Below are positions 947 through 19,432 of a stretch of DNA of 64,000 nt, one piece after another (positions within the stretch are counted from its first letter, which is position 1; the number at the start of each line of letters is the position of its first letter). A program made the position numbers and the translations under genes. The notes beneath the pieces were generated by a model. It saw only the letters and a list, made by a program, of their open reading frames with translations. It was not told the origin of the DNA and did not search any database. Origin of the DNA: an uncultured Poribacteria bacterium. Lineage in GTDB: Bacteria; Poribacteria; WGA-4E; WGA-3G. Location of the stretch: the NCBI GenBank assembly GCA_951813565.1, contig OX638351.1, positions 4,448,001-4,512,000 on the forward strand. Direction: 5' to 3'.

Positions 947-1798
947 TTAAGACAAGTTTTGTTGTTCAAATTCAAAAGGTGTCAAATACCCTAACGCAGA
1001 GTGAGGACGTTTGTGATGATACACCTGTGTGATAAAATGCCCGATGCGTGTTCTGACATCGGTTATATCCTCATAATCATTGAGATGAACTTCTTCTTCT
1101 TTGAGAGTTCGGATGAACCTTTCAACATACCCGTTCTCCCACGGACACCCTCTACGCGCTAAGGAAATCTCAATGCCGTGCTGTTTCAGCGTTGAGATAT
1201 AGGCACTTGAAAGATACTGCACCCCTTGATCGCTATGGTGGATCTCTGGGATACTTTGGCGTAATGCCTGTTCTAAGGCTTTCAGGGTCAGAGATGCGTT
1301 CAAATGTTGGCTGACCTGCCAGCCTCTTATCATGCGAGTGAAGACATCCATGAGCACCGAAACATAGACGAAGTATCTGTGGAGGCGGACATACGTTATA
1401 TCGCCAACCCAGACCTGATCACATCTACAGATGTCAAGTGCTTCAAGGCGATTCACCCAAGGCTGCACACCTTCAAGCGACCTCGTGGTTTGACTGGAAA
1501 CCCTTTTGACCGAAACCGACAAGTTCTGGGATTTCATAAATCGTGCGACGCGTCTATACCCAATGGTGTATCCCATACCCAACAGCATCTGCGTGATACG
1601 CCTATATCCATATTTCGGATAACGCGCACATAACTTCTCTATTTCCTCTCCAAGCACCTCTTCAAAAGGATCGCTTTTCGGGTGATAATAGAGAAGACTC
1701 CGGTTGAAATCCAGCGTCTCACAAATCTGGTGAACTGAATAATCGTCCCGCAACGCCTCAACGAGGTTTCGCTTATCAGACGAGGTCAACTCAACCAA
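947..1798 (-). CDS. IS3 transposase OrfB (DDE integrase core)
   Basis: WVGDITY, HHSDQGVQY, NGYVERFIRTLKEE and RPHSALGY motifs. Lies in the -1 frame relative to orfA. Confidence 0.95.
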   Translation of the reverse strand: MVELTSSDKRNLVEALRDDYSVHQICETLDFNRSLLYYHPKSDPFEEVLGEEIEKLCARYPKYGYRRITQMLLGMGYTIGYRRVARFMKSQNLSVSVKRVSSQTTRSLEGVQPWVNRLEALDICRCDQVWVGDITYVRLHRYFVYVSVLMDVFTRMIRGWQVSQHLNASLTLKALEQALRQSIPEIHHSDQGVQYLSSAYISTLKQHGIEISLARRGCPWENGYVERFIRTLKEEEVHLNDYEDITDVRTRIGHFITQVYHHKRPHSALGYLTPFEFEQQNLS

Positions 1799-2076
1799 GT
1801 CAAGGCTTTTTTTTGGATGTCAAGTGCCACGGTCAACCGCCCAACGAGTTGTTCAAGGTGTGCGATCCGTTCCATATTGGCATCAGACTGCTTATCAGCG
1901 GGTTCAAAGAGGGTCGCCGCATTTTCAAGAAGTTGTCGCTTCCACTTTGAGAGTTGTTCATCGCTGAGGTTATGTCGCCGACACACTTCTGCTTGGGAAC
2001 TTTGACCGCTGAGAGCCTCAAGTACAACTTCCGCTTTAAACTCAGGCGTGAAGTTTCTTCGTTTTCGTTTTGCCAT
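1786..2076 (-). CDS. IS3 transposase OrfA (HTH)
   Basis: RRNFTPEFKAEVVLE...AEVCRRHNLS..QLSKWKRQ HTH plus leucine zipper. Confidence 0.93.
   Translation of the reverse strand: MAKRKRRNFTPEFKAEVVLEALSGQSSQAEVCRRHNLSDEQLSKWKRQLLENAATLFEPADKQSDANMERIAHLEQLVGRLTVALDIQKKALTWLS
1806..1815 (-). promoter_or_regulatory. Programmed -1 frameshift/slippage site C-A8-G for the OrfAB fusion
   Basis: Minus strand CAAAAAAAAG near the orfA end. A -1 shift reads into the orfB frame (AGC CTT GAC TTG GTT GAG). Confidence 0.8.
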
Positions 2077-2155
2077 CGGATACTCCTTATAATTAGATTG
2101 TTATTATACCACAATCTTGGTTTAGACAGTGGCCCTAATTTCCGATGGCAGTACA

Positions 2156-2374
2156 AAGCCAACCCGAAAATTGCTTAGGATTTCTTAGAGTGGAGAGTTT
2201 TTTGTATACTTGAAGGAAAACGTCTTGCGTAATTTCTTCAGCAAAGTGAAAATCGCCAATCTCACGCCAAGCAAGCGCGTGAACCCCTTTTTGATATTTT
2301 TCAACTAAAGAACTAAACGCCTCATCGTCCCCTGATAAAATTTTGTGAATTAGTTGGACATCATCTTTTTCCAT
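2156..2374 (-). pseudogene. ECF sigma-70 factor, N-terminal (region 2) fragment truncated by IS3
   Basis: MEKDDVQLIHKILSGDDEAFSSLVEKYQ...AEEITQDVFLQVYKKLSTLRNPKQFSGWL aligns with the 58477 sigma up to GWL, where the IS end begins. Confidence 0.9.
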
Positions 2375-2533
2375 TATAATTCTCCAAGATTGACCAATAG
2401 ATTAAATGTGCTTTCGCTCTTTTAACACCCTCAGTTAAATATAGACTTTATATCTCAAGTTTAAACTCTTAAGAGTATACCAAACACACACATAATCTGA
2501 AATTGTTAAATTAGAGCTATCTTATTAATTATA

Positions 2534-2562
2534 AGACACAGTTTTGAGGCTGAAAATGTGCA
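2534..2562 (-). promoter_or_regulatory. Putative ECF-type autoregulatory promoter
   Basis: TGCACA-N17-GTGTCT upstream of the sigma fragment. A similar TGCAAC-N16-GCATCT lies upstream of the 58477 sigma. Confidence 0.4.
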
Positions 2563-2634
2563 TAATTTGAGAAAAATCAGATTTTTTCTCAAAACTCTAA
2601 TTTTTTTTAATAATTTCTGCTGTCCGCAGCGTAA

Positions 2635-2663
2635 TTGACAACTAATATACAATATGCTAAACT
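2635..2663 (+). promoter_or_regulatory. sigma70-like promoter
   Basis: TTGACA-17 nt-TAAACT with extended TG, upstream of thiO. Confidence 0.6.
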
Positions 2664-2725
2664 ATTCATAGTTTTCAATCGTGGCAATTATCTTTATGTA
2701 ACACTTTCCCAAAAACGGAGAAAAC

Positions 2726-3832
2726 TTGAACCAGAATAAGGCAGATGTTGCTATTATCGGCGGTGGTATTATTGGGTGTGCGATTGCCTATGAACTTGCC
2801 AAAAGGCAGGTAGATGTCCTCTTAATTGAAAAAGCATCACGTATTGGAACGGAAGCATCTTGGGCAGGCGCAGGTATTTTAACATCTCACGCATCAACGC
2901 ACGAACCGTATCCAGAATTATGCCGTGCAAGTCTTGCCATGTATCCATCATTAGCCACAGAACTGAAATCCGAAACAGAAATAGACATCGAATTTATCTG
3001 TTCTGGCACACTCTCAGTCTTTTTTGATGATTCGGAGGCAGCAGGTTTGATCGGTTTAGCGGAACGGCGGATAGACCGAGGTTTTACTGCTGAAGTTTTA
3101 TCTCCCGAACAGACATGGAAATTAGAGCCCGCTGTTTCAAAATCCATTGCAGGAGCAGTGTTGTTTCCTGAAGATGGACATGTACGTAACCCCAAGATGG
3201 TGGCTGCGTTAGCAAAAGGTGCAGCAAATTACGGTGCTAAACTCCTATTAGGAAATCCAGTTACTGGATTTGTCAGAGAGAATGGACGAGTTGTCGGGGC
3301 GATAGTCAACGGTGAAACTATCTATGCAGATTCATTTGTCATCGCTGCAGGGTGCTGGGCAGGCAACTTAACAGCCTTACTTGACTTTCATATCTCAATT
3401 TCTCCTGCGAAAGGGCAAATTGTTCTGCTTGAAACGATGCCACCACTGATTCAGCGTACAATTGATGGTCTCGGTATCTATATTGTTCCGCGTGCAGACG
3501 GCAAGATTTTGCTCGGTGCTACGGTGGAGTTTGTTGGCTACGATAAAACGCCATCTGTTGATGGTGTAAAGCAGATGATTGACGCTGCGGTTGTTATCGC
3601 ACCCGAACTCGCGCAAAGCACATTTGTGCAAACATGGGCAGGTCTGCGTCCATATTATAAAAACGGGCCGTGTCTCGGATATCTTCCTGGATATGACAAC
3701 GTAGTCATAGCATCTGGGCACTTCAAAAACGGCATTCTGCTTGCCCCGATTACAGGACAACTCATTGCGGAATTACTTACAACAGGACAGACTTCGCAAT
3801 CACTGAAGCCTTTTGCTCCCACTGCGATATAA
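2726..3832 (+). CDS. thiO: Glycine oxidase ThiO / DAO-family FAD oxidoreductase
   Basis: GGGIIG FAD motif, ASWAGAGIL, WAGLRP, GHFKNGILLAPITG. TTG start with GGAG SD. Confidence 0.85.
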   Translation: MNQNKADVAIIGGGIIGCAIAYELAKRQVDVLLIEKASRIGTEASWAGAGILTSHASTHEPYPELCRASLAMYPSLATELKSETEIDIEFICSGTLSVFFDDSEAAGLIGLAERRIDRGFTAEVLSPEQTWKLEPAVSKSIAGAVLFPEDGHVRNPKMVAALAKGAANYGAKLLLGNPVTGFVRENGRVVGAIVNGETIYADSFVIAAGCWAGNLTALLDFHISISPAKGQIVLLETMPPLIQRTIDGLGIYIVPRADGKILLGATVEFVGYDKTPSVDGVKQMIDAAVVIAPELAQSTFVQTWAGLRPYYKNGPCLGYLPGYDNVVIASGHFKNGILLAPITGQLIAELLTTGQTSQSLKPFAPTAI

Positions 3833-13308: not shown

Positions 13309-13880
13309 CATAGATGTCATTTAGTGTAATATCTCTCTTGTGGGAGGGTTTTGTCCGCCCGATTTTGTGAGACTCAAACTGTAAAATCCAAATCAACGCT
13401 GAATACGCCAAATCAAGAAATCAACGGTATGAATCATGGCGAATGCCATGCGCGCATTCGTCTTTAGTCATTCACCGGGTATGAATGCCTATTGGCATTC
13501 CCCGTATGGTATTCATCCAAATCAACGCAGCATGCGCCAAATCAACGGTATGAATGCCATTTGGCATTCCCCGTATGGCATGCTGCGAGGTTGAAAACCC
13601 GACAAATGCCAAAAAGCGCATTTGGCGTTGATTCACTCCCACAAGAAGGTGTATCCTAAAGTTTACACCTATGGGTAGAGCGAAGCGAAACCCAACAATT
13701 CAACCGTCTTGAGAGTCCTAAAGAGTTGGGTTTCACTTATTTTTTCGGAAATATCGACCTAAAATAGGTCAACAACTTCTCTTTAGGGCCTGTTTTTATT
13801 GTCCATTTCCGTTCTACCCCACCGAATGCCATAGGCGCATTCGGTGTTGATTCCCTACGGGATTTATCAAACTCACGTTG
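13309..13880. repeat. Cluster of REP-like palindromes with four-level nested micro-elements
   Basis: Repeated (C)CAAATCAAC starts, GAATGCC/GGCATTC hairpins, GTGGGAG...CTCCCAC REP halves. Confidence 0.8.
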
Positions 13881-13983
13881 GTTTTAAGATAAGACATATT
13901 AGCATAAAAAGAAACCTCATGAGCTTTGTAGCGCATGAGGAAAACAATATCGAAACAAAATTGAAATGAGAACTTTATTGTAA

Positions 13984-14008
13984 GTGGAGGTATAAAAATA
14001 CCTCCATA
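13984..14008 (-). terminator. Hairpin after the HMA genes, probable terminator
   Basis: GGAGGTAT-AAAA-ATACCTCC just downstream of the stop at 14021. Confidence 0.5.
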
Positions 14009-14020
14009 TTCAAACCAAAA

Positions 14021-14419
14021 TTATTCAATAACTTGTGCAGTAAAGCGGGGATCCGCTTGAACTGCTTGAACCAGAGCTTCAGTATTAACTTTGTCCTTCT
14101 GTACCTTCACAACTGCTTTATTATCGGCTTGAGAAACACTGACAACCTCTGTGACACCTGTAACCTTGGCGAGTGCAGACTGCACTGCGGCGACACAGTT
14201 GCCTCACGTCATACCATTAACTGTCAAACTGATTTCTTCAACAGCAACAGCAACCTTAGCTTCTTCCGTCTGTTCAGTTGCCTCAGTTTCTTGTGCTTGT
14301 TCAGTTGTTTCAGTTTCTTGCGTCTGTTCCGCTGCTTCTTCTGCTGTGTCTTTTTGCTGGTTAGCACATCCGAAGACAACTACCAGCATAACTATGCAGA
14401 TTAATGCTTTTTTTAACAT
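14021..14419 (-). CDS. Selenocysteine-containing HMA-domain (CopZ/MerP-like) lipoprotein, 132 aa
   Basis: Lipobox VFGC. In-frame TGA at 14204-14206 within GMT-U-GNC. Reading continues VAAVQSALAKVTGVTEVVSVSQADNKAVVKVQKDKVNTEALVQAVQADPRFTAQVIE*. SECIS-like hairpin at 14172-14186. Confidence 0.88.
14172..14186 (-). promoter_or_regulatory. Putative bacterial SECIS hairpin
   Basis: AGUGCA-GUC-UGCACU, loop G 24 nt after the UGA. Confidence 0.75.
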
Positions 14420-14590
14420 TTGATTGATTCCCCTTAATAAGTAGATTTTGCACAATCATCAATAAAATTCCCACGTCTTGTGGGTTATCTTTTCACTGTT
14501 TACCAAATTTATATTGCAAGTTGGGTAAAACCACAAAACATATCAGACGAAGGGATGAAGGGCGAAGGAAACCTCGCCCTTGTCCAATCG

Positions 14591-14974
14591 TTAGTTAGCG
14601 ACTGTTGCCGTAAAGCGTGGATCTGCTTCAACAGCTTTTATCAGAGCAGCGTTTGTAACTTTGCCCTTTTCAACTTTAACGATAGCCTTCTTGGTGGATC
14701 TTTCAACACTGACAACCTCTTTAACACCCGTGACCTTGCTGAGTGCATCCTGCACTGCGGCGGGACACGAACCTCATGTCATGCCCTCCACCTGAAGTGT
14801 CACTTCCTGATAGGCAGCCGGAGTTGGAACCTTTAATGCATCCGCATCCATCGGTTTTTCTTCCGCAGCCATTGTGGTTTCTTCAGCCATTTCAGCTTGT
14901 TGACCGACCATACCACAACCCATCAGAAATACAAAGGTAACGAGAGAAATCAGCGTAAATCTCGCTATATACAT
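14591..14974 (-). CDS. Selenocysteine-containing HMA-domain lipoprotein (paralog), 127 aa
   Basis: GGAGG SD, lipobox LMGC. In-frame TGA at 14774-14776 in GMT-U-GSC. Continues PAAVQDALSKVTGVKEVVSVERSTKKAIVKVEKGKVTNAALIKAVEADPRFTATVAN*. Confidence 0.88.
14742..14756 (-). promoter_or_regulatory. Putative bacterial SECIS hairpin
   Basis: AGUGCA-GGA-UGCACU: same stem and spacing as in the paralog, different loop. Confidence 0.75.
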
Positions 14975-15005
14975 CGTTTTACCTCCTTTGTTATTTACAT
15001 AAACC

Positions 15006-15035
15006 ATAATATCATATTTTTAATATTTGTGTCAA
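15006..15035 (-). promoter_or_regulatory. sigma70-like promoter of the HMA genes
   Basis: TTGACA-18 nt-TATTAT on the minus strand. Confidence 0.5.
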
Positions 15036-15100
15036 GCCTTTTTTCAGCAAATATGTGATTTGTCTAACCATCTACACAAGACTATTATCTTAATTGGACT

Positions 15101-15850
15101 TTATTGCGGCTTTTCTCTGTGGGCATCAAGAAATGGAAATACCTTTTGAATACGTTGAAGCTGCTTGTGAATAGCTGCTGCCCGTTCAAATTGAAGCATC
15201 GCAGATGCACTATTCCGCTTTGCTACGAGATTTGCTTGTACTTTTTCATATTCCCCGTCAAGCAAATTAACGATATTCATTATCATTTCTCTATAGAGTT
15301 CACGCGTAATGAGTGCAGCACAAGGCGCATAACAACGTTTCATGTCGTATTGTAGGCAAGCACGGTAACCGACAAGGGGTGTAATAATTTCTTGGCAAGT
15401 GCGAACCATAAAAATTCGCTGTAAAACATCAATCGCCTCATCGGTCCATCTACGACTTGATAAAGGACCGAAATATCTCGCGTTATCTGCTTGAGGTTCT
15501 GGAACTCTTTCAAGTCGTGGAAAATCTTCATCTACATTGATACGAATATACCATGTTTGAGTGCCATATTTCAGGGCAGAATTATAGGACGGCTGATGTT
15601 GTTTGATTAAACGTGATTCCAAGAAGAGTGCTTCTTGTTCAGATTGGCAAATATGATATCGAACAGAAGTTGTCCATCTAATAAGACGTTTGATTTTAGA
15701 ACGGCGATTTTTAACCTTATGAATGTATGAACGTACACGCTTGCGCAAACATTTCGCCTTACCGATGTACAAGATTTTACCAGAGGCACCGTGAAAAAAG
15801 TAGACACCCGGTTCTGACGGAACGTTTTCTACCATTTCTTTCGTTAACAT
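15101..15850 (-). CDS. GIY-YIG nuclease, UvrC N-terminal/Cho-like, with UVR domain
   Basis: PGVY...LYIGKAK.LR.RVRSY, E..LIK...P.YN, Cys cluster, C-terminal AS..LQFERAA. Lacks the UvrC RNaseH/HhH half. Confidence 0.85.
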   Translation of the reverse strand: MLTKEMVENVPSEPGVYFFHGASGKILYIGKAKCLRKRVRSYIHKVKNRRSKIKRLIRWTTSVRYHICQSEQEALFLESRLIKQHQPSYNSALKYGTQTWYIRINVDEDFPRLERVPEPQADNARYFGPLSSRRWTDEAIDVLQRIFMVRTCQEIITPLVGYRACLQYDMKRCYAPCAALITRELYREMIMNIVNLLDGEYEKVQANLVAKRNSASAMLQFERAAAIHKQLQRIQKVFPFLDAHREKPQ

Positions 15851-17477: not shown

Positions 17478-18791
17478 ATGCAAAAACCGAACATCGTTGT
17501 TTACCTATCCGATGACCATGGATGGGAATATCTCGGTTGCTACGGAAACGCACACATCCAAACTCCACACTTAGATCGTATTGCAAAGGAAGGAATGCGT
17601 TTTACGCATGCCTTCACACCAACGCCAACCTGCGCACCCTCTCGTTCTACACTTTACACAGGACTCTATCCGGCACGACACGGTGCTATGGGAAATCATA
17701 CGGAATGCCACGCAACACTTGAAACATTACCGAAAGTGCTCAGAAAACTCGGTTATCGTGTAGCGATCGCTGGAAAAACGCATGTAAAACCCGATAAACT
17801 CTTTGATTTTGAATATATCGGTGGATTTTTGCCAAAAAGTGCCGAACATGATCGGAAATACCGAAGAGAAGGGCTTGATACGGCACCAGTTGAACGTTTT
17901 CTCTTAACCCATCAGCAAGAAAATCCAGATCAACCGATCTGTCTGATTCTTGCTGATAGCAATCCGCATGTAACATGGGAGCCGAACAAAATTTATAACC
18001 CTGATGCATTACCCTTACCACCCTATATTGCAGATACGCCTATTGCACGCAAAGCACTTGCCAACTATTATCAGGACATCACGACGATGGATAAACACAT
18101 CGGTGAAGTGGAAAAAATGTTGGAAACACACGGATATGCTGACAACACACTTTTTATTTACACAACCGATCACGGTTCGGAGTGGCCGCATTGTAAATGG
18201 ACTTTATATGATACTGGCATTCGTCTGCCATTCATCGCAAAGTGGCCTGGTGAGATTCCTGCTGCGACCGTCTCCAATGCAATGATTTCGCATGTTGACC
18301 TTTTACCAACCCTTGTAGACGTAGCAGGTGGTGAACCGTCAGGTGATTTAGATGGTAGAAGTTTTAAGGATGTTTTGTGTGGACAACAAACAACTTTTCG
18401 TGATAAAATTTACGGCACGCATACGCGCGATGGAAACATGAATGTCTTCCCGCAACGGTGCGTTCGGGATAGCCAATACAAATATATTTTGAACCTAATG
18501 CCCGAAAATGTCTGGACGACCCATTTTACGCAAGTAGAAGGAATTTCAGAAAGCCATGCCGAAGTTTGGAACAGTTGGGTAGAAAAGGCGAAAAACGACC
18601 CTAAAACTGCTGAACTTGTTTATTTAACTCAGCATCATCCTATTGAGGAACTGTATGATGTAAATGTAGATCCTTACGAATTCAACAATTTAGCATTTGA
18701 AGCAGCGTCGCGCCCGATACTTGAAAGGATGCGCGGCGATGTTTGTCAATGGATGCAATTACAAAATGATGAAGGGAGACGTGAGATATGA
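17478..18791 (+). CDS. Sulfatase (Cys-type)
   Basis: PNIV...SDD, CAPSR, GKTH, TDHG. Confidence 0.92.
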
Positions 18792-19432
18792 GAATTAAAT
18801 TTATTAACCAACTCGTTTACATCGCACTAATTTTCTCGGTGTTGATGTGTTTTGGTTGTTTAGAAACAGACGAAATCGCTGATGTTTTAACACCAGATCC
18901 GCAAGACACCAACGTTATGACACCTGAACCACCAATGGAGACGACACCTGAACCAGAACCGTTGGATCCAGGAGAAGGATTGGCAATCGGTGCAACAGCA
19001 CCAGCATTTTCGCTTCCAGACGCTGATGGCAATACCGTTATGCTCTCCGATTATGCTGGTCAAAAGGTCGTAATTCAGTTTTATTCAACTGGGTTGTGAC
19101 CGGTCTGTCAAGGGCAACTCAGGGAGTTGCGAGATGGATATCAAGGTATTAAAGATGCGGGTGCTGCAGAACTAATTACAATTAGTGGGGATACGCAGTT
19201 TGGAGCGTCTAACACGCGTAATGATTTGGGATTAACTTTCCCAGTGCTTTCAGACTCAGATTTTGAAGCTATTGAGGCATACAACGTACTTGATCAAGGA
19301 AGTATGAATTGGGCAAATCCTTCAGCATTTATTATAAATGAAGAGGGAATAATTGTGTGGACAGATATTGGACGCAGGTTCGGTCATCGTACTACTTCAA
19401 CGCAGATTATCACAGCATTGCAAGGATTGTAG
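18788..19432 (+). CDS. Selenocysteine-containing AhpC/TSA (peroxiredoxin-like) lipoprotein, 214 aa
   Basis: Track ORFs 18788-19099 and 19127-19432 are in the same frame, joined through TGA 19097-19099: FYSTGL-U-PVCQGQL (UxxC). G..APAFSLPD and ITISGD motifs; lipobox-like CFGC. Confidence 0.9.
19114..19130 (+). promoter_or_regulatory. Putative bacterial SECIS hairpin
   Basis: Perfect 7-bp stem GCAACUC-AGG-GAGUUGC, loop starting 22 nt after the UGA. Confidence 0.8.

Follow-up and report, generated by a model that had tools for sequence, protein, structure and literature searches.

Two neighbouring genes on the minus strand of a 64,000-nucleotide stretch of Poribacteria DNA (the window) encode predicted seleno-lipoproteins in which the codon annotated as a stop is very likely read as selenocysteine (Sec), and both genes are very likely intact. 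This reading, first put forward in an earlier note on the same DNA, is now supported: the genome carries the Sec machinery, TGA alternates with Cys codons at the site, the downstream SECIS element covaries and conforms to the published rules, and the region behind the TGA is under purifying selection. Gene A (14591..14974, minus strand) encodes 127 residues with the motif GMT-U-GS-C-P, and gene B (14021..14419, minus strand) encodes 132 residues with the motif GMT-U-GN-C-V. Each gene contains exactly one in-frame TGA, at 14774..14776 in gene A (predicted Sec67, U67) and at 14204..14206 in gene B (predicted Sec72, U72).

Under translation table 11 both reading frames end at GMT, as the earlier note had described, and readthrough of the TGA yields a complete HMA domain (PF00403) in each protein, at residues 59–116 of gene A (14627..14800) and residues 65–121 of gene B (14057..14227), with scores of 38.2 and 39.6 bits, respectively, against a cut-off of 24.8. 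The two tails are homologous, as had been claimed, and the proteins are 48% identical over 127 columns. Alignment to solved HMA domains, which have Cys at this position, shows that in both genes the TGA takes the place of the first GMTCxxC cysteine. When gene A was modelled from its single sequence, the result was a signal helix (residues 3–19), a linker of low confidence and a domain of high confidence, whose best fold match is MerP (1osd; E 1.9e-7, rmsd 1.7), followed by P1B-ATPase domains and CopZ. The model and the fold search, both for gene A only, thus identify a ferredoxin-like HMA fold.

The genome search for Sec machinery recovered selA (607 bits), selB (344 bits), selD (372 bits) and tRNA-Sec (selC), all above cut-off, and selD has an in-frame TGA of its own. 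Homologues were collected as 142 U/C-x-x-C HMA domains from 59 genomes, drawn from loci of 61 genomes; the list of loci omits 37 weaker matches, and the counts may thus lack some copies; as the genomes are kin, the counts also exceed the number of independent events. The site is occupied by TGA in 135 domains and by TGY in 7, with one or the other in every domain, which supplies the Cys-aligned homologues that had been proposed as a check. In all 135 TGA forms the second of the two metal-binding positions in the motif is Cys. Seven further domains beyond the 142, all from family f4, read U-x-x-x-C; this variant occurs in L071, L073, L074, L108, L111, L115 and L116, with the hairpin moved by one codon.

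The SECIS hairpins lie at 14742..14756 in gene A (minus strand; 6-bp stem, loop GGA) and at 14172..14186 in gene B (minus strand; 6-bp stem, loop GUC), and both have the loop G at base 24 downstream of the TGA, exactly as first noticed. The bacterial SECIS rules in the available part of a 2026 review (PMC13188914) specify a loop of 3–9 nt, a stem of 4–16 bp, a spacing of 16–37 nt, G in the first two loop positions (G[G/U]) and an MFE of at most –7.5. Both hairpins agree with the four consensus rules given there, with a 3-nt loop, 6 bp and a spacing of 23 nt; their MFEs are –9.2 and –10.4 kcal/mol, and the loop is G[G/U]N in 135/135 TGA forms. Folding energy alone is insignificant for the two hairpins (z –0.4 to –1.8), and an Rfam search of 13500–15500 returned no SECIS family, only six sub-threshold matches. 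A 5-bp stem with the loop G accompanies 132 of the 135 Sec forms and none of the 7 Cys forms, and the 4-bp stem core 135/135 and 2/7, respectively. Codon choice in the stem is narrow as well: its Val codon is GTG in 132/135 cases, compared with 87/1,135 elsewhere in the domain, its Gln codon is CAG in 122/122 compared with 30/138, and the stem codons show no synonymous change where 5.0, 12.6 and 9.5 were expected. In an alignment reduced to 88 distinct rows, pairing is intact in 99.1% of cells and both partners have changed at two of the pairs, compared with 3–56% pairing at slid control positions; the covariation score was reached by 0/500 shuffles and the two-sided pair count by 22/500, kinship inflating both tests. 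The position of the hairpins, unlike their energy, does stand out: in the genome as a whole, a 5-bp stem with G at this spacing follows just 393 of 210,072 TGA triplets (0.19%), and the strict stem motif gives five strand matches at four places, three of them behind an HMA TGA.

The frame behind the TGA stays open for at least 57 codons in 135/135 TGA forms, partly by selection as these were found via homology, and dN/dS after the TGA against nine close relatives is 0.29 for gene A, 0.19 for gene B and 0.09 for a third paralogue, from pairs that all share this genome (G000) and are not independent. The unconserved or frameshifted tails that the earlier note had named as a sign of pseudogenes were not encountered. 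TGA is an ordinary stop in this genome, ending 440 of 2,265 ORFs of at least 300 codons, and the only tRNA with a TCA anticodon is tRNA-Sec. We rejected a pair of pseudogenes, since the tails are under purifying selection and Cys is the sole alternative codon, and we rejected TGA as a Trp codon on account of the single TCA-anticodon tRNA, the Cys alternatives and the common use of TGA as a stop.

In a quick domain tree of 70 columns the Cys forms are mixed among the Sec forms; 61 of its 129 forks are open, so no donor or order of events is drawn from it. In G008 and G036 (L030, L029) the downstream copy has the motif neighbourhood of the upstream copy, and in the tree the G008 downstream copy groups with upstream copies, possibly through gene conversion. 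In L127 and L132 (G016, G028) the frame of the downstream copy runs on for 315 and 296 codons, counted from the TGA, which adds roughly 240 residues at the C-terminus.

Both products are predicted to be exported and lipid-anchored. The predicted signal peptides occupy 14915..14974 in gene A and 14366..14419 in gene B (both minus strand) and end in the lipoboxes LMG-C20 and VFG-C18, respectively, and the linkers behind them are acidic, with D/E at 7 of 34 residues in gene A and 14 of 44 in gene B, in accordance with the lipobox and acidic linker first reported. A charged N-region, a hydrophobic stretch and a lipobox Cys are all present, the genome encodes both Lgt and LspA, and the Cys after the hydrophobic stretch is kept in 104/104 small homologues; the anchor proposed earlier gains support from these observations and remains a prediction. 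The –2 residues of the lipobox, M in gene A and F in gene B, are off the strict consensus, and in many homologues this residue is T, S, V or A.

A Shine-Dalgarno sequence GGAGG at 14982..14986 (minus strand) favours the gene A start at 14974 over 15007, and a sigma-70-type promoter match at 15006..15035 (minus strand; 11/12, 18-nt spacer, extended –10 TG) precedes it. The same promoter and Shine-Dalgarno layout was seen by eye in 35 upstream regions of relatives, which had been chosen on the Shine-Dalgarno motif. MerR-type promoters have a 19-bp spacer, and none was seen by eye before gene A, where the near-consensus sigma-70 match stands instead; from its sequence, the gene A promoter looks constitutive. 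The sole MerR_1 match in the genome is a 319-residue protein, unlike short metal sensors. Between the genes, a hairpin with a 10-bp stem lies at 14558..14581 (minus strand; z –2.38 for 14420–14590) and was not called as a terminator by a terminator scan. Downstream of gene B, at window positions 13400–13700, short imperfect repeats, to which many unrelated contigs align in a stack, are likely an intergenic repeat element. RNA-library contigs from two studies cross the TGA of gene A without mismatch (X1, X2) or contain related versions of gene B (X6, X8); these contigs also cover the flanks, may hold DNA and cannot rank genes, and accordingly speak for presence rather than transcription. Standard annotation does miss the genes, as had been expected: among the 13 of 32 database matches that were inspected, P0010 and P0024 end at GMT, and P0004, P0005, P0012, P0016, P0026 and P0027 show Trp at the site.

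The tandem pair is present in 35/37 genomes of the genus, in 9/9 genomes of family f2 and in 2/7 of family f4, and family f3 has a single copy in 8/8 genomes. At an E-value of 1e-6 a domain match is found in 159 of 176 genomes of the phylum, the misses being mostly in other orders. The pair is near-core in its genus rather than a rarity of one genome. The earlier remark that no ATPase or mer operon lies alongside is borne out: neither the window nor the 18-kb regions of relatives (among those listed) have a metal gene next to the pair, and MerT exceeds its cut-off in 0/61 genomes. No conserved functional neighbour was found, the flanking GIY-YIG, dioxygenase-like and sulfatase genes holding in part of the family only. 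Elsewhere, the genome encodes a Cu-type P1B ATPase, COX1 and a Cu-oxidase domain, together with a heavy-metal RND pump and DsbD; the HMA domain of this ATPase keeps its Cys, and its gene lies 1.4 Mb from the pair. CusF was found in 0/13 genomes, and MerA of G000 scores below cut-off (398 versus 454). For this genome we discarded a role in a mer operon in view of the lack of MerT above cut-off, the sub-threshold MerA and the atypical MerR_1 match.

The G000 genome is, as judged from its in-frame TGA codons, rich in predicted selenoproteins. At 18788–19432 of the window (plus strand), a lipoprotein-type AhpC/TSA protein is split by an in-frame TGA with the motif U-P-V-C and a 7-bp hairpin at SECIS spacing; it is split alike in several relatives and is likely another selenoprotein. 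Eleven further candidates with in-frame TGA and hairpin lie on G000:C1 at 2856737, 1718165, 2064961, 3348992, 5150303, 1806488, 4948687, 3554159, 3198568, 1111075 and 191040, and we take them, also by eye, to be thioredoxin-like, UGSC-like, DUF3179-like, SelW-like and CU-motif proteins. The hairpins of the other candidates have similar spacing.

At least four domain matches each were obtained in 9 of 176 genomes; eight of these have a complete multi-domain ORF, and in the ninth it is cut by a contig end. The complete ORFs (L278 4194–5573, L279 1773–2990, L280 3771–4844, L281 3350–4339, L282 3089–4099, L283 3322–4515, L285 3044–4162 and L286 2429–3646) encode a signal-like N-terminus without a lipobox Cys (by eye) and four to five tandem domains, in which two to four TGA repeats are followed by Cys repeats. 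The repeat orders are UUUUC (2 genomes, close kin), UUUC (4), UUUCC (1) and UUCCC (1), so that Sec repeats precede Cys repeats in 8/8; the repeats are 60–98% identical within complete genes, and copy number could therefore be mis-assembled. The 5-bp hairpin accompanies 25/25 Sec repeats and 0/13 Cys repeats of the multi-domain genes. tRNA-Sec was found in four of the five multi-Sec genomes searched, the miss being G150 (UUUUC), which is 81% complete. In L281, L282, L285 and L286 the tandem-HMA gene stands where other genomes have the pair. Behind the pair, a third lipoprotein-type gene with an HMA-strand-like start and without the U/C motif was observed (L278 2759–3250, L279 189–680, L280 5885–6376). 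Known prokaryotic selenoprotein families have one Sec and a few have two or three, according to the available part of the 2026 review (PMC13188914); judged from sequence, exported chains with up to four predicted Sec exceed the two to three of that inventory.

A third paralogue in this genome (G000:C1:359947–361539) is a fusion of 531 residues with a signal-like N-terminus, a planctomycete cytochrome c, WD40 repeats and a C-terminal HMA domain, with the TGA at the HMA motif and the same hairpin as the pair; the corresponding fusion in L024 lies at 1483–3078 (minus strand), also with TGA at the motif. Matches occur in 44/61 genomes, three f4 matches ending before the HMA part and G044 having Cys. 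The gene heads a DUF1549/1553-DUF1501-PPC cluster in G000 and in most regions examined, G009 being an exception.

For the wider family, a pattern scan of 15 of 64 parts of the GTDB contigs returned 119 loci with 130 matches (about 520 stretches are estimated overall). HMA-like matches make up 118 of the 130, 55 from Poribacteria, including two unlabelled loci placed by sequence, and 63 from others. Lipoprotein-type or exported TGA-HMA forms occur in Planctomycetota, Acidobacteriota, Armatimonadota, Nitrospirota and others, including one cultured strain, Rohdeia mirabilis Pla163 (L175), which has selB and whose lipoprotein-type TGA-HMA gene shares the hairpin core of the pair; Bacillota have cytosolic forms, and ATPase N-termini with a TGA-HMA domain were also found. 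This exact hairpin core is present in only 13/63 non-Poribacteria matches, which makes their Sec status less secure; selB was found in four of five such genomes searched. Metal-related neighbours (Hg, Cu and efflux types) were recognised by Pfam at 5/35 non-Poribacteria loci (126/152 neighbouring ORFs): a MerB-like gene (L151), a cupredoxin (L190), an efflux permease (L209), HMA and CopZ-like genes with a disulfide reductase (L198), and MerR, MerT-HMA and CopZ-like genes (L219). None of the neighbours exceeds the NCBIfam cut-offs of Mer families. In two Bacillota loci (L166, L170) a cytosolic TGA-HMA gene is flanked on one side by a Fur-family gene and on the other by a disulfide reductase gene, next to which lies selA. 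In L219, L221 and L263 an exported TGA-HMA domain is fused (by eye) to a thioredoxin-like CxxC domain, the L219 fusion standing behind the MerR-like, MerT-HMA and CopZ-like genes.

On balance, we hold with moderate confidence that the pair acts outside the cytoplasm as an envelope buffer or chaperone for soft metals, Cu(I) foremost. SelB would almost certainly bind the hairpin and allow Sec to be inserted at the UGA, and with high probability the protein would then be exported and lipidated at Cys18 or Cys20, on what is predicted to be a flexible acidic tether. Judging from the fold, the U-x-x-C loop would hold a soft metal through selenolate and thiolate. Given the chemistry of selenium, Sec at the first, exposed position of the loop would keep it reactive under oxidising conditions. 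In the last and weakest step, the metal may be held, or passed among exported metalloproteins, the RND pump and the Cu-type P1B ATPase; neither CusF nor MerT was found in this genome. The reading draws on the match to MerP, CopZ and ATPase metal-binding domains, on the copper-related genes elsewhere in the genome, and on the mer-like, CopZ-like and cupredoxin genes beside those distant homologues that do have metal neighbours. The expansion to four or five repeats would fit binding capacity better than catalysis. Several observations count against a metal role: no metal gene stands beside the pair, metal neighbours occur at only 5/35 non-Poribacteria loci, the promoter appears to be constitutive, and the available part of PMC13188914 regards most UxxC selenoproteins as redox proteins. 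In addition, the informative neighbours lean mer-like over copper and MerP is the closest fold, which makes copper a tentative choice of metal.

A redox device, in which U-x-x-C cycles between selenol-thiol and selenenylsulfide in the envelope, scavenging oxidants or relaying electrons with metal secondary, is unlikely on the whole. It draws on the fusions of the same domain to a c-type cytochrome in Poribacteria and to thioredoxin-like CxxC domains in L219, L221 and L263, on the several other redox-type selenoprotein candidates of the genome, one of them 4 kb away, and on the title of the best structural match, oxidised MerP; however, the fold is that of HMA rather than thioredoxin, stoichiometric binding would accord with arrays grown to five domains, and Cys forms persist within the same proteins. 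The preference for MerP among the fold matches (1osd and 1afi, 42% identity), the TIGR02052 scores (52 bits for gene A versus 37 for gene B) and the MerR-like, MerTP-like or MerB-like genes adjoining homologues in L219, L198 and L151 would also suit a MerP-like catcher that traps Hg(II) or organomercury at the surface via the very strong Hg-Se bond. We regard such a role as improbable: MerT exceeds its cut-off in none of the 61 genomes and MerA of G000 falls short of its own, the mer-like neighbours lie below the NCBIfam cut-offs for Mer families, and the family is near-universal in its lineage, as a mobile resistance trait would not be. It is more doubtful still that the proteins store or sense selenium, with one to four Sec per abundant small protein as a reservoir and readthrough tying full-length output to selenium supply; the order of Sec before Cys repeats in 8/8 complete multi-Sec ORFs, the cytosolic TGA-HMA genes two genes from selA in two Bacillota loci and the strong promoter match point that way, but storage would not require the observed conservation of the second Cys and of the entire fold, export would hamper recovery of selenium, and Cys reversions are tolerated. 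It is barely credible that the TGA is a true stop, with both genes reduced to pseudogenes or stubs, or that an alternative code makes it Trp, since the database proteins ending at GMT or showing Trp and the insignificant hairpin energies are opposed by the open tails of all 135 TGA forms (partly by selection), dN/dS well below 1, Cys as the only alternative codon, the frequent use of TGA to end long ORFs and a TCA anticodon confined to tRNA-Sec.

If the soft-metal reading is extended to the other Poribacteria proteins, one may tentatively picture a selenium-based network for metal handling in the envelope, built on one portable Sec-HMA module in single lipoproteins, chains and the cytochrome c-WD40 fusion. 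Equally tentatively, the fusion might link the DUF1549/1553-DUF1501 system, so far unexplained, to the delivery of metal or electrons; it also offers a biochemical handle on the DUF1501 cluster. With the pair, a whole bacterial order gains a selenoprotein family that is near-core and mis-annotated, and one in which selenolate, within an exported chaperone fold, would serve as metal ligand instead of redox catalyst. Furthermore, the multi-domain relatives would have four recoded UGAs per mRNA, each with its own SECIS, and would thus test the limit of bacterial recoding; since Sec and Cys repeats stand within one gene, SECIS rules and the metal affinity of selenium versus sulfur come with an internal control.

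Our comparison with known systems reveals that the HMA domains of MerP, CopZ and P1B ATPases (PF00403, 1osd, 1afi) share the fold and the position and length of the GMTCxxC loop with the pair, and MerP is likewise exported. Unlike them, the pair has TGA (predicted Sec) in place of the first Cys, a lipobox, a long acidic tether and a tandem arrangement, and no mer operon. CopZ copper chaperones are a small domain without signal, encoded beside copA; the pair has a signal, and the CopZ models NF033795, NF033794, NF047957 and TIGR00003 give at best 53 bits versus 85. None of the NCBIfam families was reached at cut-off by either protein. For TIGR02052 (MerP, cut-off 92.55) the scores are 52.4 bits for gene A and 36.6 bits for gene B, and a mer operon with merT and merA is lacking. 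The MerT/CopZ fusion family NF045683 (cut-off 375) matches with 24.7 and 47.6 bits over the domain part only; together with a putative mercuric transport protein (PF02411), it places Sec in a MerP/CopZ-like or mercury-transport context, as does the pair, which is distinct in having no MerT membrane part. NF041115 (UxxU_metal_bind, cut-off 95) gives 53.2 bits for gene A, as first match, and 50.4 bits for gene B, as second match. This HMA-type selenoprotein resembles the pair, but carries UxxU rather than UxxC, and its 74-position model excludes the signal and linker; the available part of PMC13188914 lists it as UxxU, with two Sec, under 'putative mercuric reductase'.

The earlier note was also right that Sec-containing HMA proteins have been reported: the consulted parts of PMC13188914 and PMC2398784 include ATPases with UxxC, NF041115 with UxxU, the MerT/CopZ fusion and MerP from the GOS survey. 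The GOS table (PMC2398784), as far as available, has two MerP selenoprotein sequences and gives no motif; these may or may not belong to this family. The cation-transporting ATPase E1-E2 selenoprotein (TIGR01525) is UxxC in the same part of PMC13188914; the swap is the same, but there the domain belongs to a pump, and in the pair it stands alone and is exported. A stand-alone UxxC HMA lipoprotein, the fusion and a multi-Sec chain were all absent from the available parts of PMC13188914, PMC9312934, PMC2398784, PMC1976440, 10.1101/2022.07.06.499078 and PMC12013277; supplements and Haft and Tolstoy 2025 may overlap. Likewise, literature searches gave no description of this family or of the cluster. 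The planctomycete PSCyt1-WD40 / DUF1549-DUF1553 / DUF1501 / PPC cluster has the same Pfam domains as the cluster of the third paralogue; the difference is that most of these Poribacteria carry a TGA-HMA domain at the C-terminus of the first gene product. To what was known, this analysis adds the cytochrome c-WD40-HMA(Sec) fusion heading this cluster, the exported tandem-HMA proteins with two to four predicted Sec in eight genomes and the similar, putatively exported TGA-HMA genes in other phyla.
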